Part shown: positions 9,531-27,808 of the stretch, piece by piece
Numbering within the stretch: the first letter of the stretch is position 1
Layout of the letters: every line of letters begins with the position of its first letter
IMG/VR virus record: IMGVR_UViG_3300025530_000352
Coordinates: 1 to 32,299 of that record
DNA from: a virus
Lineage: Duplodnaviria; Caudoviricetes
Direction: 5' to 3' (one strand)
DNA: 32,299 bases
The notes under the pieces: model-generated
Databases searched by the model: none
What the model was told of the DNA's origin: nothing
Seen by the model: the letters and a program-made list of their open reading frames with translations, nothing else
Program-made: the position numbers and the translations under genes

Positions 9531-10331
9531 ATGGCCGAGGTACAGAAGGTTCCGTATGTCACTGTTCCCGGAGGGCTTCCTGGTGAAGATCCTCGTGAGA
9601 AGTTCAGGTATTTGAATATGCTTGTGCACGCTCCTGGTGGTCGAGGAAAGACTTCGCTGGCTGCAACCGCGTGTAGGGATCCTAGAACTTCTCCGGTGCT
9701 GGTGCTCGACATGGAGGGTGGAGCTCCTTTGCGCTTCGTAAATGAGGATCCTTCGAAATATACTATCCGCAAGGTCCGGAGTATCGAGGATATCAACCAG
9801 ATCTACGAGTATCTTGCTGCTGGCAAGCATCCGTACAAGACTGTGGTCTTGGATTCTCTCACGGAGATCCAGAAGCTGGGGCTGTATGAGTTTGTATACG
9901 GCAGGCAGCCTGATAAATCCTTCAAGGGTAACATCATTGAAGTCAAGACCGCGGAGATTCAGCATTGGGGAAAGTCCGGCAGTCAGATGGGCATGATGTG
10001 CCGCTACTTCAGAGACCTCCCAATGCATGTAATCTTCACGACACTGACGCAGCGTCTGAAAGACGAGACTACTGGCAAGATCACTATTACAGTGGCACTG
10101 CCTGGCAAACAAGCTGACGAGATTCCCGGTATTCCTGATATCGTAGGATACATCGATGTCGTCCGGATCGGTCAAGAAGATGTGCGCGTACTTAAGGTAC
10201 AGCCTGACGGCAAGATCGAGGCGAAGGACCGTACGGATGCTCTCGGGGAAGGAATTCTCCTGCGCAAGGGAGAAAATCACATTTCCAAGATGCTGGATTT
10301 GATTTGGGAGCACCACGGAATTACAGAATGA
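9531..10331 (+). CDS. AAA_24 / Sak4-like phage ATPase
   Basis: PGGRGKT, LDMEGG, VVLDSLTE, AKDR; lies between nuclease and DUF669 genes. Confidence 0.85.
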   Translation: MAEVQKVPYVTVPGGLPGEDPREKFRYLNMLVHAPGGRGKTSLAATACRDPRTSPVLVLDMEGGAPLRFVNEDPSKYTIRKVRSIEDINQIYEYLAAGKHPYKTVVLDSLTEIQKLGLYEFVYGRQPDKSFKGNIIEVKTAEIQHWGKSGSQMGMMCRYFRDLPMHVIFTTLTQRLKDETTGKITITVALPGKQADEIPGIPDIVGYIDVVRIGQEDVRVLKVQPDGKIEAKDRTDALGEGILLRKGENHISKMLDLIWEHHGITE

Positions 10332-10348
10332 GCCCACATAAATTCACA

Positions 10349-10377
10349 TTGATTTTCTTTCGGAGATCACATATAAT
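10349..10377 (+). promoter_or_regulatory. sigmaA-type promoter (copy 4)
   Basis: TTGATT-N17-TATAAT. Confidence 0.8.
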
Positions 10378-11881: not shown

Positions 11882-14719
11882 ATGCGAATAGAGCGATTTC
11901 GCAGGTTCTACGAGATGTACTTGGGACCCCTACCGGAGGCCAACTCTTCAGGTGAAGTGCAGGTGCGAAGTTGCTTCCGACACGATCCGAATCCTTCAAT
12001 GTTCATCAATTTGGAGGATGGAAGGTACAACGATTTCGGAAGTGACTATAAGGGTGATGCGTACAACTTTTACATACACATGCATGATGCGTCGTTCACT
12101 GCAGCAAAGAAGGCGGTAGATGAAATCGTTGGGAGTCCTGAGGAAGGAAACATAAGGGTTCCAGTACCAATTGACGAGGATCTCGTTCTCCGATGGCACT
12201 CAAATCTAATGGCGAGCGACGATCTTCGAAAGTACATGAATGTCAACAGAGGCATCAGCAATGACATTCTCAAGAAGTTCAAGATTGGTTTCGATGGGCA
12301 GCGGTATACTATTCCAATCTATAACAAGTATGGAGTTTGCGTCAATGTCAGGAGATACTCTCCAGGGGCTTCTGGCGGAGACAAGATGATCAACTATGGC
12401 AAGGGCTATGGCAACGCAAGGCTCTTCCCGCTAGAGGCCCTTGAATCTAAGGTGGTGTTGCTTCAAGAGGGAGAGTTCGATACACTCATCCAGTGGAGCA
12501 AGGGCTTCAAGGCGATTACGAATACTTCCGGCGCAGCCACTTGGAAGCAAGAATGGACTGAACTGTTCAAGGGGAAGATAGTCTACATCTGTTACGATGC
12601 AGACAAGGCGGGTAAAGAAGGCGCAATCAAGGTTGCAAGTCAGTTGATTGGAGTTGCTGAGAGAGTCTGTATAATCGACTTGCCAGTCCCTCCAAACTCC
12701 GGAGAAGATGTTACTGACTATTACGTCAAGTACGATAAAACCGCAGAAGAATTTGCACACTTGATGTCAGAAGCGAAGCCTTTCCAGCTAGACGATGGTT
12801 CTGCTGATGCCCAGGCAAATACGGTAACCAGAACAACCCTTGTAGAAGCTCGTCACAGCAGATTCAAGCACAAGAAAGTACAATTCGATGTAATGGTGGT
12901 AGGTAAAGATACTGCACCATACAACATCCCATCCCAAATACTATTCAAGTGCTCCATGGTTGGAGTGAATGAGAAGATGTGCAGCGCGTGTCAAATCGCC
13001 CGTTGCGGAGGGGAGTTGGAGCTACAGATTCCTAAAGATCCGGACATGCTTGAGCTCATAAAGTCTTCCAAGCAGCAGCAGATGGGGTTGCTGAAGCGGA
13101 AGGCAGGCATCCCTCAGAACTGCTCTTTCTATCAAGCTGAGGACACGAAAAGTGTGAACATCGAAGAAGTCCTGTTGGCTCCAGAGATCCAGTCTTTCAG
13201 CGAGTGGTCTCCTGAGGGCGTGAAATACATCCTTCAGTCTGCTTTCATAGTAGATCATCCTTTGGATGCAAATCGGACCTATCGCGTAACTGGGATAATG
13301 ACTCCGGATCCGTGGCAACAGCACGTAACCTTCCTGCTAACAGACGGAGAGCCCTTGCAAGACACGGTATCGTCTTTTAGGATGACTCCGGAGCTGTACC
13401 AGCAGCTGAAGATCTTTCAGGTAACTGAGTCTGTGGAGAAGAAGTTCGAAGAGATTCATGAGGACTTCGAAGCAAACGTCACCCACATTGTTGGAAGAAG
13501 AGACTTACTTACCGGCATCGACTTGACCTATCACTCAGTACTGTCATTCTTCTTTCAGGAGGTGCCGATCCACAAAGGGTGGCTGGACTTCCTCTGTATA
13601 GGGGATACTCGTACTGGCAAGTCTGAGACCACGGAGAAGCTGCTACGGCACTATCAGCTGGGAGAAATCTCTGTAGCAGAGAACACCTCTTATGCAGGGC
13701 TTGTAGGTGGCCTGCAGCAGACAGGAGATCGTAGATGGTTCTTGACATGGGGCAAGCTTCCTCTGAACGATGGTCGGCTCTTCGTGATTGACGAAGTCTC
13801 CGGCATGTCAGTGGATGACATTGGGAAAATGTCCGGCATCAGATCGTCAGGTATTGCGGAATTGACTAAGATTCAGACCGAGAGAACAACTGCACGTACT
13901 CGATTGATTTGGCTCTCCAACCCTAGGAGCGGTCGTAATTTGAGTACGTACAGTTATGGCGTCTTAGCAGTACCTGAGCTTATCGGCAGAGCAGAGGACA
14001 TATCCCGATTCGACTTCGTCGTTGCAGCATCTCGGGATGAAGTTCCAATTGACCTTATCAACCAACGCAAGATTGGCGGCAAAGAAGTTCCGCACAGATT
14101 CACATCTGCCCTGTGCAGAGCACTCGCCCTGTGGGCTTGGTCTCGAAAGGCGGAAGATGTTGTATTTGAAGATTCCGCAACGGATGCCATCCTGCACTAT
14201 GCGATCAAAATGGGTCGGGAGTATTCATCTGCGATTCCATTGGTCGAAGGAGCTAACCAACGTATCAAGCTTGCCCGACTTGCTGTGGCTGCGGCTGCGA
14301 GAGTATTCAGCACAGACTCTACTGGAGAGAAAGTCATTGTAAAGAAGGAGCATGTCGACTTCGTCTATGCCTATCTCGAGCAGATCTACAGCAAGCCCTC
14401 TCTCGACTACAAGGGGTACTCTGAGCGAGAGCTCGCGGACATTCGTCTGGCGGAGAAGTACCGAGATGAGGTTACTAAGTATCTGGAAGCATTTCCGGAT
14501 ATCGCTGACTTGTTTGATCGTCAGGAGTATGTGTGGCCGAAGCATTTAGAAGAGCAGCTTGGTTGCGAGCGTGCCGCGGCGCAGGAACATATTGCATTCT
14601 TCACACGTACTAGAATGATCCAGGAGTCCAACAGCCGGGGATATAGGAAGTCTGCAGCATTCATTCAGATCTTGAGAGAGTGGAAGTTCAAGAGAAAAGT
14701 AGAGGAGGAGTTACATTGA
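11882..14719 (+). CDS. DnaG-type (TOPRIM) primase fused to MCM-family helicase
   Basis: CFRHDPNPS Zn-finger-like start; EGEFD and CYDAD TOPRIM motifs; Cys cluster; IGDTRTGKS, AGLVGG, NDGRLFVIDE, SNPRSGR, SRFD match MCM AAA+ motifs. Confidence 0.9.
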   Translation: MRIERFRRFYEMYLGPLPEANSSGEVQVRSCFRHDPNPSMFINLEDGRYNDFGSDYKGDAYNFYIHMHDASFTAAKKAVDEIVGSPEEGNIRVPVPIDEDLVLRWHSNLMASDDLRKYMNVNRGISNDILKKFKIGFDGQRYTIPIYNKYGVCVNVRRYSPGASGGDKMINYGKGYGNARLFPLEALESKVVLLQEGEFDTLIQWSKGFKAITNTSGAATWKQEWTELFKGKIVYICYDADKAGKEGAIKVASQLIGVAERVCIIDLPVPPNSGEDVTDYYVKYDKTAEEFAHLMSEAKPFQLDDGSADAQANTVTRTTLVEARHSRFKHKKVQFDVMVVGKDTAPYNIPSQILFKCSMVGVNEKMCSACQIARCGGELELQIPKDPDMLELIKSSKQQQMGLLKRKAGIPQNCSFYQAEDTKSVNIEEVLLAPEIQSFSEWSPEGVKYILQSAFIVDHPLDANRTYRVTGIMTPDPWQQHVTFLLTDGEPLQDTVSSFRMTPELYQQLKIFQVTESVEKKFEEIHEDFEANVTHIVGRRDLLTGIDLTYHSVLSFFFQEVPIHKGWLDFLCIGDTRTGKSETTEKLLRHYQLGEISVAENTSYAGLVGGLQQTGDRRWFLTWGKLPLNDGRLFVIDEVSGMSVDDIGKMSGIRSSGIAELTKIQTERTTARTRLIWLSNPRSGRNLSTYSYGVLAVPELIGRAEDISRFDFVVAASRDEVPIDLINQRKIGGKEVPHRFTSALCRALALWAWSRKAEDVVFEDSATDAILHYAIKMGREYSSAIPLVEGANQRIKLARLAVAAAARVFSTDSTGEKVIVKKEHVDFVYAYLEQIYSKPSLDYKGYSERELADIRLAEKYRDEVTKYLEAFPDIADLFDRQEYVWPKHLEEQLGCERAAAQEHIAFFTRTRMIQESNSRGYRKSAAFIQILREWKFKRKVEEELH

Positions 14720-15189
14720 TAGCAACACTGTGCAAATCGTTCACCTTTGATGCCGCCCATCAGCTGGTAGGTCACAAGGGCAAGTGCCAAAACCTTCACG
14801 GACATACTTACAAGCTGGAGGTGTTCATCACCGGAGAGGTTAATCGAGACTACGGGTCTTCAGACGAAGGCTTCGTAGTAGATTTCTCCGAAGTCAAGGA
14901 GATTGTCAAGCGGGAGATTGTCGACCCTATGGACCATGCGTTTCTGGTCTGTGGCAATGAGCCCGCACTCGACAAAGTGCTTACCAAGAAGTACTATCTG
15001 GGATTCCGATCGACCTGTGAGAACATGGCCGGATACATCTTGTACAAGCTCTCGCGTGTATGGCCGCCGCACTTGCCGCCGGTGACTAAGATCCGCTTGT
15101 GGGAGACTCCAACTGGATATGCGGAAGTGAGTCTCGAGGGTCACGACCTTGATCAGATTGTCAGAGAGATGGTAGGAGGTGCCGAATGA
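14716..15189 (+). CDS. queD: 6-carboxytetrahydropterin synthase
   Basis: FDAAH, CQNLHGHTY, VDF, DHAFL, TCEN, WETP; TTG start after GAGGAGG. Confidence 0.93.
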   Translation: MIATLCKSFTFDAAHQLVGHKGKCQNLHGHTYKLEVFITGEVNRDYGSSDEGFVVDFSEVKEIVKREIVDPMDHAFLVCGNEPALDKVLTKKYYLGFRSTCENMAGYILYKLSRVWPPHLPPVTKIRLWETPTGYAEVSLEGHDLDQIVREMVGGAE

Positions 15190-15935
15190 GTGCGAAGATT
15201 CCAGTCCTAGAAATCTTTGGACCTACAATTCAGGGAGAAGGCGCTGTCATTGGAAAGAAGACGGTGTTCGTTAGAACTGCGGGATGTGACTATTCCTGCG
15301 CGTGGTGTGATTCGAAGTTTACTTGGGATGGCTCTGCGAAGCATCAAATTCGAATGTTGTCCCCGGAGGAGGTCTGTCAAGAGATCTTCTCTCTTGCAGG
15401 AGATAGCTTCAATCATGTGACTATCTCTGGCGGCAATCCTGCCCTGATAGGTCCCCAGATGCGAGAGCTTCTTATTAGGTTGCATAATCGTGGAGTGAAG
15501 GTAGGTCTGGAGACTCAGGGAAGCCGTTGGCAAGATTGGTTCCTGCTGGTGGATGACCTCACGATCAGTCCGAAGCCGCCTAGCAGTGGCATGCGAACTG
15601 ACTGGGGCATCTTGCGATACATTGTGGAGAAGCTTGCCGGCTACTGCGACATGGCTGAAGAGGCCTACAACTTCAATCTCAAGGTAGTAGTGTTCGACCG
15701 AGATGACTATGAGTTCGCGAAACAAGTGCATCGGGAATTTCCGGAGGTTCCTATGTTCTTGTCCGCAGGCAATTCTGATGTAACTCCAAATGCCTCCAAA
15801 GCGGAGCTTCGGGATTCCATTCTGACAAAGCTTGATTGGCTTGCGTCGAAGGTCATGAACGATCCAGCAATGAATGAAGTTAGAGTATTGCCGCAGCTGC
15901 ATGTGCTTCTGTGGGGTAATCAGAGAGGAGTATGA
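15186..15935 (+). CDS. queE: 7-carboxy-7-deazaguanine synthase (radical SAM)
   Basis: [34 protein letters not shown]. Confidence 0.96.
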
Positions 15936-15939
15936 GGAT

Positions 15940-16560
15940 ATGAAATTGACGCAGATTCAATATAACGCGATAACTTCCGCAATAGGGAGCACGCCACAGC
16001 TTGAAGAGCTCGAGAGCGTTCTTAAGGGGATTCAATCGTTGATCCAGCTCTGTGGAGACGATCCTGACAGAGATGGCTTACAAGACACGCCCTACAGAGT
16101 GTTGAAAGCTTTCCTAGAGTACACTTCGGGGCTTAGGGGTGATCCGAAGGAGCATCTGCAGAAGACTTTTGACGTGCAACATCAGGAGCTGGTGCTCGTG
16201 AAGGACATCGAATTCTACTCGATGTGCGAGCACCACTTTGCACCATTCTTCGGGGTGGCCCATGTTGGATACATTCCGGAAGCGCGCATCACTGGCTTGT
16301 CCAAGATCGCACGAATGGTGGAAGGATATGCCCGCAGGTTCCAAGTGCAGGAGAGGCTGACTGGTCAGATTGCGCAAGCAATGGAAGAAGTGCTTCAGCC
16401 GAAGGGTGTAATGGTGGTCGTAGAAGCAAAGCACATGTGCATGTGCTCTCGGGGAATTCAGAAGAGTGGGGCCTCTACTACTACCTCCTCTGTTCGAGGA
16501 GTGTTTCTCAGAGAAGCGGATGCTCGTGCGGAGTTTCTCTCACTGATTTCGAAGGGGTGA
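15940..16560 (+). CDS. folE: GTP cyclohydrolase I
   Basis: [32 protein letters not shown]. Confidence 0.96.
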
Positions 16561-16566
16561 TCTTCT

Positions 16567-16929
16567 GTGGATAAAGCGTTGATGGCAATGCTCTCTAGTA
16601 GAGCACGCTGGATCAATGAAGCCACTGACACAGTGATCGAAGAGCTGCTGTCCGGCGTGCTTGGGTATCGAGACTTTCAGAGACTGTTGGGGCTGCCTGC
16701 AAGATTGCACAGGCAGTTCCTGCACTCTGCAGGAGTTGACCTTTACATTGTCCCCTATGAGACTTCGCGACTGATCGTGCTCAGGACGATCGATAACGAA
16801 TTCTTGAGAGCACGTGTGGTCAAGTATGACCCAATATTCGATCGCGTGGAAGTCGAGGGACTTTCAGAAAAGAGGTTCAGGGAATTGATGGAGCATCTGA
16901 AGAGACACTTTTCATCTTCGCTGCACTGA
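16567..16929 (+). CDS. hypothetical protein inside the deazaguanine cluster
   Basis: GAAGGGG SD-like, GTG; fills gap between folE and next promoter. Confidence 0.6.
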   Translation: MDKALMAMLSSRARWINEATDTVIEELLSGVLGYRDFQRLLGLPARLHRQFLHSAGVDLYIVPYETSRLIVLRTIDNEFLRARVVKYDPIFDRVEVEGLSEKRFRELMEHLKRHFSSSLH

Positions 16930-16937
16930 AATTGCCC

Positions 16938-16966
16938 TTGAAATTTTCCTGAAAATATCGTATAAT
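16938..16966 (+). promoter_or_regulatory. sigmaA-type promoter (copy 6)
   Basis: TTGAAA-N17-TATAAT. Confidence 0.8.
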
Positions 16967-16977
16967 TAAATTAGGAG

Positions 16978-17325
16978 GTGAGTTCAGTGATCGTTAAACT
17001 TGTGAGAAGCCCAGAAGAAAGAGAAGCGCTTGAGAAGGTATTTAATGCATATGTCGAAGAGGCTCTTGCACGTGCGCAGGCATTGCGCGAAGAACGCGGC
17101 AAGGGCTATAACTCGACAGTCTCAATCGTGGACTACTTCCCTCACGGAGAGCAAGACCTTACATACGAGCTGTTCAAGAAGCTGGTGCGTACAGAGAGTG
17201 TCATTGCTGCGGAGAAGGAAGGGCTTGAAATCGATGGCAGTGTAGAGGACAGCATTCTTGATGCAATCAACTACAGCGCATTTCTCTATGCGTACTACAA
17301 GATGCGAAAGGAGGGCTTCAATTGA
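16978..17325 (+). CDS. nucleotide-modification-associated (Nmad1/DUF1599-like, MazG-type all-alpha) protein
   Basis: RGKGYN...KKLVR...SVEDSILDAINYSAF; start may be GTG 16987. Confidence 0.6.
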   Translation: MSSVIVKLVRSPEEREALEKVFNAYVEEALARAQALREERGKGYNSTVSIVDYFPHGEQDLTYELFKKLVRTESVIAAEKEGLEIDGSVEDSILDAINYSAFLYAYYKMRKEGFN

Positions 17326-18083
17326 AAGTTGCAGTAATTGCGCCAACCAAGCTTCTGGATAAGTTTGCTGCGAGATCGAATTATCACTTGGTACTTGCTC
17401 ACCAGTACATGCAGGATGCGGCGTACCGTAACTTCTACAAGCGAATGGTGGCCCGCGGAGATTTCGTTATTCTGGATAACAGTGCTTACGAGCTCAAGCG
17501 TTCGGTGGACGTGTCTGTGCTGAGAGAATGTGCAGAGGACTTGCATCCAACCGCAATGTTTCTGCCTGATGCCAGATTTGACACTAGCGAAACCTTGAGA
17601 CTGGTCGCGGAAGCCATTCCGCAGCTGCAGGGGTTGAACGTGAAACTGCTTGCAGTTCCTCAAGGGAGGAATCTTAGCGAAGTTCTTGCATGCTACAATA
17701 TTCTGAAGGCACATCCTGACATTCATGGATTTGGCTTGTACGAAGAAATTGGTGAAGTCTGTGGCTTCAAGGATCGTGTGGAGTTCCTGAGATTCTTGGA
17801 CTCCGAAGGTCTCTTGGACTACACCAAGTACTATCACCTGTTGGGAATGGAAGAAGATGTCACCAAGGTCCGGGAGCTCTGCAAGTTCCCTTGGGTGAGT
17901 GGCATCGATAGTGCCAAGCCTGTGGTGTATGGGCTCCACGACATCAAGTTCAGCGAGGTAGAAGTACTTCCAGAATATCCTCATCGGCCAGAAGGGTACT
18001 TCGAGATTGAGAAAACTCCTTACGAATCTGCGGTGATTCACAATATCGATACTCTCAAAAAATGGGCCCAGAATTACGCGTAA
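17322..18083 (+). CDS. divergent TGT/DpdA-like guanine transglycosylase
   Basis: TGT-barrel motifs in order: ILDNSAYE, FLPD, AVPQG, YHLLG, GIDS; located in the que cluster. Confidence 0.7.
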   Translation: MKVAVIAPTKLLDKFAARSNYHLVLAHQYMQDAAYRNFYKRMVARGDFVILDNSAYELKRSVDVSVLRECAEDLHPTAMFLPDARFDTSETLRLVAEAIPQLQGLNVKLLAVPQGRNLSEVLACYNILKAHPDIHGFGLYEEIGEVCGFKDRVEFLRFLDSEGLLDYTKYYHLLGMEEDVTKVRELCKFPWVSGIDSAKPVVYGLHDIKFSEVEVLPEYPHRPEGYFEIEKTPYESAVIHNIDTLKKWAQNYA

Positions 18084-18168
18084 GAAATATATTGCCGAAA
18101 AATTTTCTCCGGGGATTTATAAGGAAAATTTCCGGAGATTTTTCGGAGAATGAAAGGAGTTAATAAAT

Positions 18169-19611
18169 ATGTGCAGTATATCAGGAGCAATGTTCCCTTT
18201 GCTCATGGATCCGCTACAGAGTGCCCGCTACGAAGATATGCTCCGCGACGTCATCTGCGTAGCAGAGGAGCGCGGAAGAGATAGCTGGGGGTGTGCTTTG
18301 ATATCGTTGGTTCCGTCCCAAACGAAGATCATTCGCAAGATCGGTCGTCCGAGCCACACCCTTCGGGAAGTCGAATTCTATGTTCCTATGATGTCAATGG
18401 CCATCAACAATAATCGCGCGGAACCTACTACGGAATATGTTTCGAGCAAGCTTCCGAAAGACATACAGCCGTTCACCTGCGGGGGGTGGATCGTTGCACA
18501 CAATGGAACGATTGCCAACGACAAGGAACTGATCGAGAAGTATGGTCTGAAGGTTGAAACTTCCATTGACAGTGCTGTCATCCCTGCACTCCTAGCTCAC
18601 TTTTTCAGCGACCCTGCAGAAATTAACTTCCACGAGATCGTCGAGGTACTCTCCCGAGAGCTCGTAGGATCCTACGCTCTCGCGATTGCTCATACCAATT
18701 GTCCTAACGACCTCATCCTTATGGTGAACTACAAGCCTCTGTATGTGGCATGCAATTCCGAGAAGAACTTCTTGCTTTTCTCGAGTCTCGATAAGTACTT
18801 GGAGGCGCCCGGCTTGGATCTTCAATTTGCTAGCGACTTGCGAGTGAAGCCGCTCAAGCCGTACTCGGCACTGCACGTAACTCGTCACACCTCCGGAAGG
18901 CTCTGCTTTGATGAAATCAGCTTGCCAAGGAAGCGTCCGGATTCTCAGAGAGCGTTGGTAGTTTGCTCCGGAGGACTTGATTCCACAGTAGTTGCAGCAG
19001 ATGCACTTCGTCGCGGGTACGAAGTAACTCTGCTCCACTTCCAATACAGTGCACGTGCAGAGGTGAAAGAAGTTGAAGCTGTCAGAAACATTGCCGATCG
19101 ACTTGGGTGTGACTATCTCATCGTGGGAACAGATATCTTCAAAACTGTCATTGGAGGATCTCGTCTCACTAACACACGCGATGAGATCAGTGAAGGAGTT
19201 GCTGGTGCGGAATTTGCTCATGAGTGGGTCCCAGCCAGAAACCTCATTATGCTTGCAGTGGCAACTGGAATCGCTGAATCCAAGGGTTATGGAGTTATCA
19301 TGCTCGGTAATAACCTCGAAGAATCCGGTGCCTACCCCGACAATGAGATGGAATTCATCCGAAAGTTTTCCGAAGTTCTTCCCTACGCCACACAAGTGGA
19401 CAAGCACGTACGTGTGGAAATGCCTGTAGGACATCTCATGAAGCATGAGATTGTCAAGAAGGGCGTTGAGCTTGGCGCTCCACTGGACCTGACTTGGTCG
19501 TGCTACGAGGCAGGAGATCTGCATTGTGGGCAGTGCGGTCCGTGCTTTATGCGCAAGACGGCCTTCAAGATCAACAATATTCCTGAAGTGATCCAGTTCT
19601 TGAATGAGTGA
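18169..19611 (+). CDS. gat-queC: Gat-QueC fusion (class II glutamine amidotransferase + 7-cyano-7-deazaguanine synthase)
   Basis: N-terminal Cys2, HNGTIAN, IDS; SGGLDST, VPARN, YPDN, TWSCY, CGQCGPC. Confidence 0.92.
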   Translation: MCSISGAMFPLLMDPLQSARYEDMLRDVICVAEERGRDSWGCALISLVPSQTKIIRKIGRPSHTLREVEFYVPMMSMAINNNRAEPTTEYVSSKLPKDIQPFTCGGWIVAHNGTIANDKELIEKYGLKVETSIDSAVIPALLAHFFSDPAEINFHEIVEVLSRELVGSYALAIAHTNCPNDLILMVNYKPLYVACNSEKNFLLFSSLDKYLEAPGLDLQFASDLRVKPLKPYSALHVTRHTSGRLCFDEISLPRKRPDSQRALVVCSGGLDSTVVAADALRRGYEVTLLHFQYSARAEVKEVEAVRNIADRLGCDYLIVGTDIFKTVIGGSRLTNTRDEISEGVAGAEFAHEWVPARNLIMLAVATGIAESKGYGVIMLGNNLEESGAYPDNEMEFIRKFSEVLPYATQVDKHVRVEMPVGHLMKHEIVKKGVELGAPLDLTWSCYEAGDLHCGQCGPCFMRKTAFKINNIPEVIQFLNE

Positions 19612-19631
19612 GGAAGGCTCCTGCCTTCCTC
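19610..19631 (+). other. intergenic hairpin
   Basis: GAGGAAGGC-TCCT-GCCTTCCTC, no T tract. Confidence 0.45.
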
Positions 19632-19655
19632 TCATCATACATAGGAGGCTAGTAA

Positions 19656-22286
19656 ATGTACGGAAAGGGAAGCCTGAATGCGGATATTGTGTTTGTAGGA
19701 GAGGCTCCTTCAAAGATTGAAGAGAAGCTGAACGAAGTCTTTTACGGGAATCCTGGAAGACTGTTGCAGTCCGTGTTGAGCTCTGTTGGGATCAATAGTC
19801 AAGAGTGCTTCTACACGTACGTAGTAGACTTTGCAATCGAGAAGTCTCCCACTGTGAAAATGATAGAGACTGCACGGGAGAGGTTCAAGAGCGACTTCGC
19901 GACTATCAAGCCTAAGGTTGTAGTGGCTATGGGCACATATGCAATTAGGGCCCTATTGAAGCGAAACGACAACATTGCGGAGATTCGAGGATATACCTTC
20001 TGGTCGAAGGAATACAACTGCTATATCATTCCAACCTATCAGCCCGGGGCAGTGATTCACAATCCAGCATTCTTCAATGACTTTGCGAAGGACATACAGA
20101 AAGTATCCGAGGTAGTGAAGTATCCCCCTGGTGGCGTACGTCAGAAGCCTTTACAGTGGTACATGATCAAGTCAAAGAAGTACGCCATCAGAGTGCTTCG
20201 AGCGATGCAAAAGATGAAGAATGTGGTCTCGCTTGACATTGAGACCGACGGCTTTGACTATTTCAAAGATGACATTTTGGACATCGGGATGAGCACGAGT
20301 GATGACAGTGCAATCACATTTCACAAGAGCGTGATTGAAGATCCTGAGGTGCAGGCGGAAATGGCTCTCGCATTTGCGAACCCAGACATCATTTGGGTGC
20401 TCCAGAATGGCAAGTTCGATGTGCAGTTCTTGAGGGCGGACCCTGATCCGAAAATCTTCGGAAAAAAGAAGAAAGTGGTCATCCCTACTGCAAGGTGCGA
20501 CTTTGATACTATGTATGCGCACTATGCACTGGATGAGCGTCAAGGAACGCATGGCTTGAAAGCTTGGGCTAGAGAAGAATTCGATGCAGAGGACTACGAA
20601 GCAGAGATTCGAGCGTATTTGCCAAACAAGGATACACCATACTCAGCAATTCCGGACAGAATTCGGCACAAGTACCTTGCAAATGACGTTCGCTACACCC
20701 GGAAGGGGTACTTCAGGTTCAAGGAGAAGATGAAGCAGGATGGCGTCGAATGGCTCTTCTATAACCTGCTCATGCCCGCTTCCAGAGCCTTCACGGAAAT
20801 TGAGCTAGAGGGCGTTCCAATAGATGTTGAAATGCTGAAGCGTTTGATGGAAGATGCTGCCCCGAAGATCGAAGAGGCTGCAAAGCGCCTGGCAAGAGCA
20901 GCTGAGCAAGTAGGGTGGTCTCCTGAAGCGTACGTTGCCGCTACCGGTGCCAAGGAAAAACCCAAGTTCTTCAATCCGAAGTCCCATCCACAGCTGTCCT
21001 GGGTAGCATACGACCTGTGCAAAGTACCTCTCTTCGAAGGGAAGAAGACTTGCAACAAAGATGCTGTAGAGGCGTATCAGTACAGACATCCTTTCTGGAA
21101 AGCTCTTGCAGAGTATAAGCAAGTCAATGACTTGTTTGGAACATATGTCAAAGGAATGTTACAGAGAGTAGATCCAGATGGAAGGGTACGTCCTGACTTT
21201 CTGCTGCACGGCACGGTCACAGGACGGCTCTCCTGTCATGACCCGAACCTTCAGAATATCCCAAGAAAGTCGTTCGTCAAGGATCTCTTTATCTGCGATG
21301 AAGATAGCGTGATTTGCAGTGTGGACTACAAGACGCTGGAAGTTGTAGTTGCCTCAATCCTATCTGGTGATGAAGAGATGCAGCGGCCATTCATTATGGG
21401 AGAAGACTTCCACATGAACACTACGCGGGATGTCTTCGGAGAGCACTTGGAAAACTTCCGACAGTGGACTCTAGAGAAGAACGTCAATGCGTATATCAAG
21501 TACTTGCAGCAACCTATGATGCTTGAAATGCGAAATGCCAACGCGGCATACAAATATCTGTACACTTGGGAGGATCCTGACAACTTCAACACCTACAAGC
21601 TGAAGCCTGTAGAAGAGATCGAGTTCGACAAGTTGGAGGATCTTCTGATCGACTACCTCAGATTCCTCACCAAGTTCATCACGTTCGGGATCATGTACGG
21701 CAGAAAGGCGAAATCTCTCGCACACGGAGAGCTGAATTGCTCCGTAGCAGAAGCGCAGAAGTACATCGACAACTTCATGAAGAAGTATCCGAAATTCGCT
21801 GCGTGGATGAAAGCGCAGCAGCAGAAAGCTCTCAAGGAAGGATACGTAGTCAATCTCTTCGGAAGAAAGCGTCGCTGGCCATTCATTACATCCGACATTG
21901 CCTATCAAATCGAGAACCAAGCGGTCAATACCCCAATTCAAGGATCTGCCTCAGACATCAATCTCCTTTCGCTGGTCGCAATTCATGAAGCATTCCGGGA
22001 GAATGGTTGGGGACATGTAAGGTTTACAGTACACGACTCCATTATTTTCCAACTCAAGAAGGCCCACCTATCGGAAGCACTTCACTTGATTCGCGACAAG
22101 ATGACCCATCCACCAGTAGACACTCAAGTACCTTTCGAAGTAGACTTGGAAATTGGCACTAGATACGGTAATGTAGAGCAAGTTAAGCTGAATGCTCACG
22201 GACAATGGGTTCCTGCCAAGCCCGAGAAAGCTAGTAAGTGGTTGATCGACACCCTAACTACCTATTGTGGATACTCTCCTACATAA
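19656..22286 (+). CDS. polA: family A DNA polymerase with N-terminal UDG-like domain and 3'-5' exonuclease
   Basis: VGEAP...PTYQP (UDG-like); DIETDG, NGKFD, YLAND (exo); TGRLS..PNLQNIP, DYKTLE, KFITFGIMYG, VHDS (pol). Confidence 0.93.
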   Translation: MYGKGSLNADIVFVGEAPSKIEEKLNEVFYGNPGRLLQSVLSSVGINSQECFYTYVVDFAIEKSPTVKMIETARERFKSDFATIKPKVVVAMGTYAIRALLKRNDNIAEIRGYTFWSKEYNCYIIPTYQPGAVIHNPAFFNDFAKDIQKVSEVVKYPPGGVRQKPLQWYMIKSKKYAIRVLRAMQKMKNVVSLDIETDGFDYFKDDILDIGMSTSDDSAITFHKSVIEDPEVQAEMALAFANPDIIWVLQNGKFDVQFLRADPDPKIFGKKKKVVIPTARCDFDTMYAHYALDERQGTHGLKAWAREEFDAEDYEAEIRAYLPNKDTPYSAIPDRIRHKYLANDVRYTRKGYFRFKEKMKQDGVEWLFYNLLMPASRAFTEIELEGVPIDVEMLKRLMEDAAPKIEEAAKRLARAAEQVGWSPEAYVAATGAKEKPKFFNPKSHPQLSWVAYDLCKVPLFEGKKTCNKDAVEAYQYRHPFWKALAEYKQVNDLFGTYVKGMLQRVDPDGRVRPDFLLHGTVTGRLSCHDPNLQNIPRKSFVKDLFICDEDSVICSVDYKTLEVVVASILSGDEEMQRPFIMGEDFHMNTTRDVFGEHLENFRQWTLEKNVNAYIKYLQQPMMLEMRNANAAYKYLYTWEDPDNFNTYKLKPVEEIEFDKLEDLLIDYLRFLTKFITFGIMYGRKAKSLAHGELNCSVAEAQKYIDNFMKKYPKFAAWMKAQQQKALKEGYVVNLFGRKRRWPFITSDIAYQIENQAVNTPIQGSASDINLLSLVAIHEAFRENGWGHVRFTVHDSIIFQLKKAHLSEALHLIRDKMTHPPVDTQVPFEVDLEIGTRYGNVEQVKLNAHGQWVPAKPEKASKWLIDTLTTYCGYSPT

Positions 22287-22345: not shown

Positions 22346-22382
22346 TAGAATATACTGTTTTCTTTGAAAGGAGGTGAAGACC

Positions 22383-22745
22383 ATGAGATTTTGGCTAGAG
22401 GTACCTTGCCGCGAGCTTTCAGACCCTAGACTCCTAGACGAGCATCGTAGCGTACATGCGTATTTCGGTGGAATGATGAGGGCCCCTAAGAAATGGGCGA
22501 AACATCCTCTGATCGGTCCAATGGATCCATCTGTAATGCACCTAAGGCATGCCGAGCAAGTCGCTGAAATGCTTTCAAGAGGTTTCAAACATTCCACTCC
22601 TCTTGACCTTAGCGATGTAAACCACATCTCAACATGGCGAAACGCTAACGGCCTAGGAACTATTGGAATGTATCTAAATGCAGAAGGCAGCCCGATCCTA
22701 CATGAGAAGATGCGAGAGCTGCAACTAGAATACCTTGTACGTTAA
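22383..22745 (+). CDS. pyrimidine-dimer DNA glycosylase / endonuclease V-like protein
   Basis: MRFW..P..LSDPRLLDEHRSVH, HP, RHAEQVAEMLSRGFKH. Confidence 0.7.
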   Translation: MRFWLEVPCRELSDPRLLDEHRSVHAYFGGMMRAPKKWAKHPLIGPMDPSVMHLRHAEQVAEMLSRGFKHSTPLDLSDVNHISTWRNANGLGTIGMYLNAEGSPILHEKMRELQLEYLVR

Positions 22746-24052: not shown

Positions 24053-24400
24053 GTGAGTAAATTTTCAGAAGGCGATTGGGTAATAGTACGCCGAAATGCA
24101 TTGGACATGCCCCCATTAGTAGGGTACTTAAAGGATATCTTAGTCGCAAGAGGTTCCTACAGGAGGCGTTCTCTTAGGGTGCGCATAGTGCGTCGGCTGG
24201 ATGGGAAGCCTATTTCTTGGGCGGGCGCTGAAATCTTGGTTAGGGACTTGGATATAACTCCATACCCGCCTGAGGAAGGGACCTTGCAAGATCTTATAGA
24301 CTTCGCACTCGACGCTAGAGATCGCGAATGGTTTCTAGAGCTTTCCGAACAGTTAAAGCAGCAGAGAGAAACCACCGCGCCAACGGTGACTGAAGAATGA
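24053..24400 (+). CDS. IDEAL-domain protein
   Basis: C-terminal LIDFALDARDREWFLELSEQLK. Confidence 0.8.
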   Translation: MSKFSEGDWVIVRRNALDMPPLVGYLKDILVARGSYRRRSLRVRIVRRLDGKPISWAGAEILVRDLDITPYPPEEGTLQDLIDFALDARDREWFLELSEQLKQQRETTAPTVTEE

Positions 24401-24446: not shown

Positions 24447-24713
24447 ATGACCAAGAAAGCAACCGGCATTGTGCGCAAGGTAGACGAGCTTGATAGGATA
24501 GTCCTGCCGAAAGAGCTGCGTCGTGTATACGGCATCAACCCTAACGACTCGGTCGAGATCTTTGTCACAGGCGAGGAGATCATCCTGCGCAAGTATGTAC
24601 AGCCTACGGGATGTACATTTTGCGGTACGGTCGCGGATCACTATGCAGATATGGGAGACCACAGGATCTGCCCAGGTTGTGCGGAGTTGATCATGGAGAG
24701 GCTGCAGTCATGA
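24447..24713 (+). CDS. abrB: AbrB-family transition-state regulator with C-terminal Zn ribbon
   Basis: KATGIVRKVDELDRIVLPKELRR...IILRKY; CTFC...CPGC. Confidence 0.9.
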   Translation: MTKKATGIVRKVDELDRIVLPKELRRVYGINPNDSVEIFVTGEEIILRKYVQPTGCTFCGTVADHYADMGDHRICPGCAELIMERLQS

Positions 24714-25088: not shown

Positions 25089-25135
25089 TTAACTAACAGG
25101 CAAAACATTTCGCTTTCTAAAAGGAGGTGATAAAA

Positions 25136-25804
25136 ATGCAGAAGCGCTTCGAAGATCTCACTCCTGAAGAGCAGTACATACAGAGTAAAGAGTCACCCGA
25201 ACTTTATCAGGAGTTCTTCCGAATTCATCAAAGGCTTGCGTGGTTCATAGTGCACGAAGTAATTCGCCCGGAGGCTGCTAAGCTTCTAGATCGCGGGGCG
25301 TCTATGGATGACTACTTGCAAATTGCGATGCTAGGGATGTTGAAAGCCTATCAGACTTTCAATCCTGAAAGATCGAAATGGGCTACTTGGGCTTCAGTCT
25401 GCATTCGAAACGAGCTTTACATGACTCTTCGCCGTCGAATGAAGTACGTCAAGCGAAACATCATCTTCGAATCCTTCGACGACATAGTGTTTGACCGCTC
25501 TGGCGGAAGAGGAGACGAAGCAATTACCTTGGAGCAGACAATAGGAGAAGAGGACCTTCGAATGAAACTGCTCGAGAACGTGGAATTCTTCTGGGCTGTA
25601 GTAGAAAGGCTCAAACGTCATCTCAACGCCACCGAACTCAAAGTATTCGAGAAGGTGCTCGAATGCCGTCAAGGAGTAACGCAGGTCACTCTCGCTCGAG
25701 ATCTTGGGATCAGCCAATCATACATCAGCCGGGTACTTAGGCGCATCTACTTCCAGGCAGAAGAAATTCGCAAGCAGCTCCTAGCAGACAAACTTACCTC
25801 TTGA
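25136..25804 (+). CDS. sigma-70 family factor, sporulation sigmaE/sigmaK-like
   Basis: LKAYQTFNPERSKWATWASVCIRNELYMTLRR (region 2); TQ..LARDLGISQSYISR (region 4). Confidence 0.88.
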   Translation: MQKRFEDLTPEEQYIQSKESPELYQEFFRIHQRLAWFIVHEVIRPEAAKLLDRGASMDDYLQIAMLGMLKAYQTFNPERSKWATWASVCIRNELYMTLRRRMKYVKRNIIFESFDDIVFDRSGGRGDEAITLEQTIGEEDLRMKLLENVEFFWAVVERLKRHLNATELKVFEKVLECRQGVTQVTLARDLGISQSYISRVLRRIYFQAEEIRKQLLADKLTS

Positions 25805-26856: not shown

Positions 26857-27008
26857 TGACGCGCCCACGTAGCTACCGAAGAGTACTCTGCGAGAAGTGT
26901 CGCAAGAAGTACTCGTACTATCACTTTCCGAAGCACTCATGCAAGCCCCGGACGGAGAGAAAGAGGCCAGCTGATCTCAATAGATCTGGAGGTAAGAAAA
27001 ATGGATAG
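26856..27008 (+). CDS. 50-aa basic protein with C2HC zinc-finger-like motif (not in ORF track)
   Basis: TGATG coupling; CEKCRKKYSYYHFPKHSC. Confidence 0.55.
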   Translation: MTRPRSYRRVLCEKCRKKYSYYHFPKHSCKPRTERKRPADLNRSGGKKNG

Positions 27009-27321
27009 GCAATCAACCCTCTACTACCAGAAAGTAATTCTCCCGCGTTGCATCAAGATCGGACAGTACATAGTTTCCCAGCGGGCAACTCTCAGAGCAA
27101 CAGCTCTCGCATTCGGAGTATCGAAGTCAACTGTGCATCAAGCAATCGGTGTACTCAAGCATATTGAACCGTCCCTACATCAACAAGCACTTGCGGTGAT
27201 TCAGTACAACAAGTCGGTAAGACATCTTCGCGGTGGGGAAGGCACGCGGAAGAGGTATGAGCAGATTCGTCAAGCGCGGCAATTGGAGCAAATACTAAAA
27301 TCTCCGCGAATATACGGGTAA
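27001..27321 (+). CDS. spoIIID: SpoIIID-like sporulation transcription regulator
   Basis: RCIKIGQYIV...TLRATALAFGVSKSTVH...YNKSVRHLRGGEGTRKRY. Confidence 0.92.
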   Translation: MDRQSTLYYQKVILPRCIKIGQYIVSQRATLRATALAFGVSKSTVHQAIGVLKHIEPSLHQQALAVIQYNKSVRHLRGGEGTRKRYEQIRQARQLEQILKSPRIYG

Positions 27322-27377: not shown

Positions 27378-27719
27378 TTATTGTAATTGGTTCTCTTGTC
27401 CGTTAAACGGCATCGGAGGGCTAGATTCTGCAAAGTGAGGTGCTGTGCCTTCGCCTTCTTCCTGTAGCAGTACATTGTGTCCTTGAGCTGCCATCTTCTC
27501 TGCAAACTGCAACATTCGCTTCACCATCTCTCCACCAACTGCTCCGCAGTAGTAGGAAGGAACCATTCTCCAATCGTACTTGCCCTTGTTGTTCTTGGGA
27601 ACCTTCACTCCGATGGAGTTAGCTACTTGATACTTGATCGCATCCAGAGCATCTCTCGCTTCGGGAATCTCAATCTGGTTCTGAGTACCCGTCGTAGTGC
27701 TGTTGATTTTGTCGTCCAT
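27378..27719 (-). CDS. alpha/beta-type small acid-soluble spore protein with C-terminal extension
   Basis: PEARDALDAIKYQVANSIGV...SYYCGAVGGEMVKRMLQFAE; AGGAGG SD before ATG 27719. Confidence 0.9.
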   Translation of the reverse strand: MDDKINSTTTGTQNQIEIPEARDALDAIKYQVANSIGVKVPKNNKGKYDWRMVPSYYCGAVGGEMVKRMLQFAEKMAAQGHNVLLQEEGEGTAPHFAESSPPMPFNGQENQLQ

Positions 27720-27808
27720 AAAATCTCCTCCTGAGATCATAGTGGCTACCTTTGGATGATCTTTCGATCATCACTAGTATTATTATATATGATCCCAGGA
27801 GGAAATAT

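Follow-up and report, generated by a model that had tools for sequence, protein, structure and literature searches.

The stretch of DNA analysed here, referred to below as the window, is the 32,299-base virus record IMGVR_UViG_3300025530_000352 (Duplodnaviria; Caudoviricetes), which is estimated to be 41% complete. It contains a replication module with genes for a ligase, an SNF2 helicase, an exonuclease, Sak4, SSB, a primase-helicase, PolA and RNase H, and a cluster of 7-deazaguanine genes arranged in the order primase-helicase, queD, queE, folE, an open reading frame (ORF) of 120 aa, a promoter-like site, a gene of 112 aa, dpdA3, a hairpin, gat-queC and polA (Table 1). The FolE, QueD, QueE, Gat-QueC and PolA genes that an earlier note, made from the sequence alone, had named in this cluster are borne out by Pfam and NCBIfam matches, and the overlap it described between a gene resembling tRNA-guanine transglycosylase (TGT) and an upstream Nmad1/DUF1599-like ORF amounts to 4 nt (TTGA). 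As set out below, the cluster brings together a guanine transglycosylase of the DpdA3 family and a Gat-QueC protein, a pairing that appears to be new and that predicts DNA in which guanine is nearly completely replaced by archaeosine (dG+).

Table 1. Features of the 7-deazaguanine gene cluster in the window
Feature	Position	Strand	Basis or remark
queD, 6-carboxytetrahydropterin synthase	14716..15189	+	PF01242 E 6e-31; TIGR03367 above cut-off
queE, CDG synthase (radical SAM)	15186..15935	+	TIGR03365 344 bits, cut-off 206
folE, GTP cyclohydrolase I	15940..16560	+	PF01227 E 8.5e-73
120-aa ORF, function unassigned	16567..16929	+	single homologue, at the same position in L084, 36% over 92 aa
sigma-A-type promoter-like site TTGAAA-17-TATAAT	16938..16966	+	11/12 match; like element before the slot gene in 7/8 loci including the window
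DUF1599/Nmad1-like all-helical protein, predicted dNTP pyrophosphohydrolase	16987..17325	+	112 aa from the probable start; ORF finder start 16978
dpdA3, DpdA3-family guanine transglycosylase, minimal TGT-type TIM barrel	17322..18083	+	253 aa; tblastn, profile, structure model
intergenic RNA hairpin dpdA3/gat-queC, terminator-like or processing site	about 18095..18146	+	-25.4 kcal/mol, z -3.27
gat-queC, class II glutamine amidotransferase-QueC fusion, predicted archaeosine synthase	18169..19611	+	PF06508 and GATase; homology to 9g gp06
polA, family A DNA polymerase with N-terminal UDG-like domain	19656..22286	+	PF00476, PF03167, PF01612

Sequence comparisons place the TGT-like gene product in the DpdA3 family. 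This family was defined from the proteins CGPG_00065 of phiST, gp056 of CP220 and gp206 of immuto (Cui et al. 2023, PMC10516641), all of which are among the 36 phage records that were found by tblastn with the 253-aa protein of the window and to which it is 24-30% identical (E 1e-12 to 4e-15). A profile built from 99 of the 120 homologues listed matches the phiST protein with a probability of 99.8 over 244 columns, and gives no meaningful match to the DpdA1 of phage 9g (probability 0.9); neither DpdA1-type homology nor an LDSG motif was found. Among DpdA1 to DpdA4, the protein is thus placed with DpdA3 and away from DpdA1, and no phage with DpdA2 (nt-1) or DpdA4 (HVTV-1) was present among the tblastn records, no direct profile comparison with these two having been made. 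On the tree, its nearest named relatives are the proteins of Youna2 and BSTP12, and BSP7/BSTP5, which are given as DpdA3 phages in sheet DS1 of PMC10516641, have a relative inside the tree group of the window. The structure model (pLDDT 97) has as its best fold matches DpdA 7ui4 (Z 16.7, root mean square deviation (rmsd) 3.3, 232 aligned residues), ArcTGT (Z 16.5) and TGT (Z 16.1). Residues D52, Q114, H172 and D196 are invariant, and D83 almost so, across the 99 sequences; judged by strand position, the counterparts of Asp95, Asp130 and Asp256 of DpdA would be among these residues. The gene is linked to the CDG/preQ0 synthesis genes queD, queE and folE. Pfam and NCBIfam assign no family to the protein, and a phmmer search against PDB sequences gave 0 matches.

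The earlier note considered the TGT-like gene atypical in having DNS where DSG is usual. This turned out not to be so: after removing copies that were more than 85% identical and loci with less than 2.5 kb of flanking DNA, 78 DpdA3 loci were left, of which the anchors have DNG (49), DNS (26) or DNC (1), compared with DSG in 31 of 34 DpdA1 anchors. DN[S/G], which in the window reads LDNSAY, is hence the usual motif of DpdA3, and the candidate of a new family of atypical TGTs was rejected.

The Gat-QueC protein is full length, shares 42% identity with gp06 of 9g over its whole length (E 2e-113), and has the N-terminal Cys2, the SGGLDS motif and the C-terminal Cys motif. Gat-QueC has been associated with dG+ and little preQ0 in 9g (PMC6884629), and with dG+ at 7.55% of G in Vid5 (PMC8306585), and all three measured DpdA3 phages have been described as having their G completely replaced (PMC10516641). 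Since the measured DpdA3 phages are fully substituted and Gat-QueC gives dG+ in 9g and Vid5, DNA with near-complete dG+ is the predicted outcome of the pairing. We therefore find it likely that dG+ is the main product and is present at a high level, and family membership in this way supports what the earlier note had suggested about the product and the level of replacement. Sheet DS1 of PMC10516641, covering 91 genomes chosen by its authors, has Gat-QueC in 0 of its 31 DpdA3 rows and only in 9g, together with DpdA1. A glutaminase domain was found in 6 of the 78 DpdA3 loci, all of them within one supported clade of seven rows that holds the window. Searches of the open-licence literature turned up no paper that deals with DpdA3 alongside Gat-QueC, with full replacement by dG+ or with DpdA3 biochemistry.

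Two relatives, L082 and L083, are 96-97% identical in the flanks on both sides and have DpdA3 proteins that are identical at 249 of 254 positions, and yet the first has a plain QueC and the second Gat-QueC. As nearly the same DpdA3 is found with different QueC types, the end product can apparently be switched while DpdA3 stays unchanged, which would mean either that preQ0 is inserted and then amidinated or that DpdA3 takes both bases. Hutinet et al. (PMC6884629) state that the order of base insertion and amidination is unknown. The sites of the swap are clean (queC at L082:10813-11539, gat-queC at L083:2163-3602); a plain queC is also present in L080, and in L078 and L092 the stretch from dpdA3 to polA contains no queC gene.

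The closest known systems share parts of this arrangement. The DpdA3 systems of phiST (Cellulophaga; dDG), CP220 (Campylobacter; dADG) and immuto_2-6A (Flavobacterium; fdPreQ1), as described in PMC10516641, also have a DpdA3 homologue, FolE/QueD/QueE and a neighbouring nucleotide hydrolase. The window differs from them in having Gat-QueC instead of DpdL, QueC or QueF with DpdN, and a DUF1599-like protein instead of a MazG or HD hydrolase; no kinase was seen, the host signature is that of a spore-former, and the clade is distant. Enterobacteria phage 9g and Pantoea phage Vid5, in which Gat-QueC goes with DpdA1 (PMC6884629, PMC8306585), have FolE, QueD, QueE and a full-length Gat-QueC in common with the window, and their replacement is partial (up to 30% of G for DpdA1). 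Unlike them, the window has DpdA3 in the place of DpdA1, a family A polymerase and a neighbouring hydrolase, which is found within 1.5 kb in 0 of 34 DpdA1 loci. The nearest named relatives by both DpdA3 and PolA are the Bacillus phages BSP7/BSTP and the Weizmannia phage Youna2, known here from their genes, which have the same order of primase-helicase, que genes, dpdA3 and polA. Their QueC, however, is of the plain type, and the slot ahead of dpdA3 is taken by a kinase-like gene. Finally, the dZ pathway (DutZ/DUF5664, DmtZ and DpoZ; PMC12884076) follows the logic proposed below, in which a dNTP is converted into a dNMP, the base is exchanged on the dNMP, and a phage PolA incorporates the product. 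Its DUF5664 family fills the slot in relatives of the window. However, its base (2-aminoadenine) is different and its exchange enzyme unrelated (NDT-like versus a TGT barrel), and the likeness is therefore one of analogy and not of membership.

The 112-aa protein encoded in this slot is similar to DUF1599 clusters in the ESM Atlas (0.95, with 210-217 shared features and DUF1599 on 27-79% of the members); the Pfam match to PF07659 is below the cut-off (E 0.16), and DUF1599 is weakly detected in 6 of 21 aligned members. Its model gives AF_0060 (probability 0.98, E 0.29) and iMazG (probability 0.89, E 0.98) as the top rows in Foldseek, and comparison with VIA gives Z 8.4, an rmsd of 3.5 and 87 aligned residues, a MazG fold match that is weak in view of the E value of 0.29 and of a Z that is ordinary for helical bundles. 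In a survey of 31 close-clade loci, including one duplicate and several near-copies, the slot before dpdA3 is occupied by a DUF1599-like gene in 11 rows, by a DUF5664/PF18909 gene in 10 and by a kinase-like gene in 2 (L007 and L097); DUF3310 lies further off in 1, and the other 7 have no recognisable gene, the available upstream sequence being too short in five of them. DUF1599-like and DUF5664 genes occur together in 0 of the 31. In 7 of the 8 loci examined, a sigma-A-type element precedes the slot gene irrespective of the family that occupies it, and a scan with the alignment of the 112-aa protein found only 4 viral loci, every one already beside dpdA3. DUF5664 hydrolyses dATP, dGTP and dUTP to the dNMP (PMC12884076), and it is mainly because DUF1599-like and DUF5664 genes displace each other in one slot that the 112-aa protein is predicted to be a dNTP pyrophosphohydrolase, the substrate being presumed. 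In L005 the DUF5664 gene (9576-9931) is split over two frames, by a frameshift or an assembly error.

Neighbouring genes were compared using profiles seeded from Pfam-labelled neighbours, most seeds being from the DpdA3 side, in 103 of the 110 representatives listed for DpdA1 and 148 of the 247 listed for DpdA3, together with representatives of clusters. Of the 78 DpdA3 loci, 30 have a MazG-superfamily-like gene no more than 1.5 kb from the anchor and 45 have one within 10 kb, compared with 0 and 5 of the 34 DpdA1 loci. A kinase-like gene is found within 3 kb in 17 of the former and 0 of the latter; it should be noted that the DpdA1 control is mostly one 9g-like lineage and that the p-values overstate independence. 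In the DpdA1 locus L169, Pfam finds a NadR-type P-loop about 3.1 kb from dpdA1. HD-domain genes are not enriched at DpdA3 loci. When loci were picked by their polymerase instead, a hydrolase was present within 3 kb of polA in 15 of 26 loci with DpdA3 and in 2 of 27 without it. In phiST, CP220 and immuto, a kinase-like gene and a nucleotide-hydrolase-like gene (MazG, PRA-PH or HD) are each located within 1 kb of dpdA3. Phosphoribosyltransferase genes are present in several DpdA3 clusters (L003:5840-6235, L036:1450-2139, L072:2340-2840, L259:1641-2216), and the window has none; a phosphoribosyltransferase profile that drifted into FolE was discarded.

In the polymerase of the window, the O-helix has F670 and F674 where, by alignment, KlenTaq has R660 and T664. 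R660 is reported to form hydrogen bonds with O6 and N7 of the incoming dGTP (PMC6176618), and both positions to tune incorporation (PMC10164586). Among PolAs in which the R..K motif is intact, a hydrophobic residue at the R660 position was found in 52 of 61 that are linked to DpdA3 and in 3 of 27 others, 11 short loci and one DpdA1 locus having been set aside. The O-helix association as such is 78 of 89 versus 3 of 27, yet it comprises only 4 independent pairs on the tree (p 0.5), because the PolAs linked to DpdA3 cluster strongly on their tree (6 changes versus 24.5 when shuffled). The adapted polymerase proposed in the earlier note has therefore kept its suggestive O-helix changes and lost significance under tree control, and O-helix remodelling linked to DpdA3 is best regarded as a lead. 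The measured full-replacement phage immuto has Asn at the R660 position, and aromatic residues occur there in L323 and L333, incomplete records in which DpdA3 and FolE were not found. A DpdA3-linked PolA clade (the L038-L072 group, for example L039, L060 and L068) has Leu at the position of Taq R659, otherwise a conserved Arg, and in L017, L019, L020 and L022 dpdA3 is followed by a tandem pair of divergent polA genes, both full length, whose O-helix motifs differ.

The earlier note took frequent GATC and GAATTC sites as a sign of protection. The counts in the window (192 and 20) do exceed the base-composition expectation (126 and 8.3) but equal the Markov expectation (190.6 and 17.1), and these sites are hence neither enriched nor avoided. 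Palindromes as a class are not avoided in the window either (mean z +0.45 for 4-mers and +0.17 for 6-mers). For 6-bp palindromes containing G/C, the median observed-to-expected ratio is 0.92 in 82 DpdA3 loci of at least 15 kb, compared with 0.81 in 20 loci without DpdA3 (p 4e-5) and 0.73 in 28 DpdA1 loci (p 7e-11); the window has 1.04. At 4 bp, G/C palindromes show no significant difference between the groups. Avoidance of AT-only palindromes was discarded as a signature, as it was not seen in the window and the DpdA3, no-DpdA3 and DpdA1 groups do not differ at 6 bp. This pattern fits high-level protection and is silent on the route, and hosts and lineages differ between the groups.

How such DNA would be made can be read in more than one way. 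The cluster may well replace most or all genomic G with dG+ by building the modified nucleotide before replication, a reading that we favour tentatively. FolE, QueD, QueE and the QueC domain, the genes for which are present and the chemistry of which is established for the 9g homologues, would convert GTP into preQ0. The DUF1599-like protein, judging from its fold and the slot swap with DUF5664, would cleave dGTP to dGMP and pyrophosphate, which would deprive the polymerase of dGTP and provide the sugar-phosphate donor. DpdA3 would act not on DNA but on this free deoxynucleotide, exchanging its guanine for the deazaguanine. The nitrile would be converted into G+ by Gat-QueC with ammonia, in the simplest case once the exchange has taken place, as the QueC/Gat-QueC swap beside a 98% identical DpdA3 suggests. 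Host or unrecognised kinases would then make the triphosphate for incorporation by PolA, and the resulting DNA would be resistant to restriction at G-containing sites. An enzyme that exchanges the base of a dNMP is already known in DmtZ (PMC12884076), and a modified-dGTP route was proposed for Campylobacter phages in 2019 (PMC6884629). The ADG nucleoside has been found in the cytoplasm of CP220-infected cells (as cited in PMC10516641). DpdA3 covers the whole DpdA barrel with 160 fewer residues (253 versus 413 aa), and insertions of DpdA form its DNA-binding crescent (PMC10164549). Several observations weigh against nucleotide-level replacement, in addition to the weak fold match, the narrow DpdA1 control and the tree-limited polymerase association given above. 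DpdA3 was classed as post-replicative by those who described it (PMC10516641), and the DpdA3s of phiST, CP220 and immuto group apart from that of the window, on weak support. No such hydrolase is present within 10 kb in 33 of the 78 DpdA3 loci, and among the polymerase-picked loci the hydrolase counts within 10 kb of polA are 17 of 26 with DpdA3 and 9 of 27 without it, and kinases are not enriched (2 of 26 versus 3 of 27). In phage Wayne, DUF5664 has a tenfold preference for dATP, and members of the family are also found in phages with canonical DNA (PMC12884076). DpdA1, too, is smaller and acidic, and the two families cannot be told apart by net charge (p 0.85), so that loss of DNA binding found no support in a net-charge test. 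Pfam detected no kinase in the 41%-complete window, nor in 57 of the 73 ORFs of G001, a complete relative of 60,980 bases with the order DUF5664-dpdA3-gat-queC-polA, where the ORFs outside the scan were known pathway and replication genes, long ORFs and short minus-strand ORFs; a search for PF21448 kinases hit 0 of 4 records and was insensitive, as it missed the weak match in L007 (E 0.008). Because no kinase was seen in the window or G001, the nucleotide route would here have to rely on host kinases, as Z phages do, or on a base exchange at the triphosphate level. The pool-level idea of the earlier note thus retains comparative support, from the hydrolase slot tied to dpdA3 and the relaxed avoidance of G-containing palindromes, and has against it the published role of DpdA3 and the missing kinase.

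A possible, though doubtful, alternative is that DpdA3 works on finished DNA, where it puts preQ0 (or G+) in the place of G regardless of sequence, that Gat-QueC amidinates the base to dG+, that the small helical protein either cleans the nucleotide pool in a general way or is unrelated, and that the polymerase changes only help to read a modified template. This is the published assignment of 2023 (PMC10516641), and it agrees with the TGT/DpdA-type fold with intact catalytic aspartates, with the failure to find a kinase in the window or G001, with the hydrolases near polA in loci without DpdA3, and with the occurrence of DpdA3 alike with PolA, PolB and PolIII-type polymerases. It leaves unexplained why a single promoter-linked slot directly before dpdA3 is filled by either of two unrelated hydrolase families, why dpdA3 has kinase genes beside it in phiST, CP220 and immuto, and why DpdA3 alone was inactive in an E. 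coli assay in which DpdA1 works (PMC10516641, Discussion). That the product or the level is a different one, namely dPreQ0, dADG or a mixture, or a partial replacement, with a divergent clade that is DpdA1-like in level or a Gat-QueC that is a mere glutamine-fed QueC, we regard as rather improbable. The distance of the DpdA3 of the window from the measured ones, the plain QueC of a near-identical relative, a hairpin that may lower gat-queC expression, and the lack of a precedent in the open-licence literature for a genome with fully cationic G would all suit it, but Gat-QueC is full length and similar to the 9g enzyme that gives dG+ and little preQ0, and G-containing palindromes are not avoided. 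A role of these genes in tRNA modification or host metabolism is very improbable: the TGT-type fold would allow it, and the fold also covers Cap10, for which a PDB title (9ntn) points to a non-DNA use, but the homology is to the DNA-modifying DpdA3, the genes lie between those for the primase-helicase and PolA, the window has no tRNA genes, and the palindrome pattern speaks against it. The fullest form of replacement at the nucleotide level is that of a guanine-free lineage, in which every G is archaeosine, made before replication by a TGT-fold enzyme that works on a free deoxynucleotide and receives it from a DUF1599 dGTPase; copying would be done by a PolA in which the O-helix, the part that reads the N7 of guanine, has been remodelled, with preQ0 and G+ being switched by the swap of one cassette; in all these parts together it is rather unlikely.

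To date, dG+ has been measured only at partial levels. If every G were archaeosine, about a quarter of the bases would carry a positive charge, which would constitute a new natural variant of the genetic alphabet. A pool-level route would also allow DNA to be made in fully modified form inside cells. The compact unit of one promoter, a hydrolase, dpdA3, gat-queC and polA names candidate partners for 100% substitution in DpdA3 phages and would give DUF1599 its first function, and the QueC/Gat-QueC swap provides two natural variants with which the timing of amidination can be addressed. To what is known of DpdA3 systems, the locus adds the pairing with archaeosine synthesis, a slot shared between DUF1599 and DUF5664, the exchange of one cassette for another and a lead in the O-helix.

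With respect to transcription, the dedicated promoter shared with gat-queC that the earlier note described was confirmed in part. The site in Table 1 is the best of 17 such sites between 10 and 24 kb (shuffled sequences have 12.1 +/- 3.3), but the terminator-like hairpin separates it from gat-queC; in L005 and L008, dpdA3 and gat-queC abut. Between gat-queC and polA lies a GC-rich hairpin without a U-tract (19605-19640, z -2.9). Promoter-like sites TTGATT-17-TATAAT are present at 10349, 11257 and 22317, of which the last overlaps a hairpin (z -3.1) and could be a regulatory site. For the 120-aa ORF, Pfam, PHROG and NCBIfam gave no match and the ESM Atlas none that was usable. Directly after polA, a gene at 22374-22745 resembles those for pyrimidine-dimer DNA glycosylases (PF03013). 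Further downstream are genes for an IDEAL-domain protein (24053-24400, +), an AbrB/MazE-like protein (24447-24713, +), a sigma factor (25127-25804, +), SpoIIID (27001-27321, +) and a small acid-soluble spore protein (27378-27740, -). Because genes for SpoIIID, the spore protein and the sigma factor are present, the host is probably a spore-forming member of the Bacillota. At about 27000, where the genes turn to the minus strand, both the GC and the AT skew change sign.

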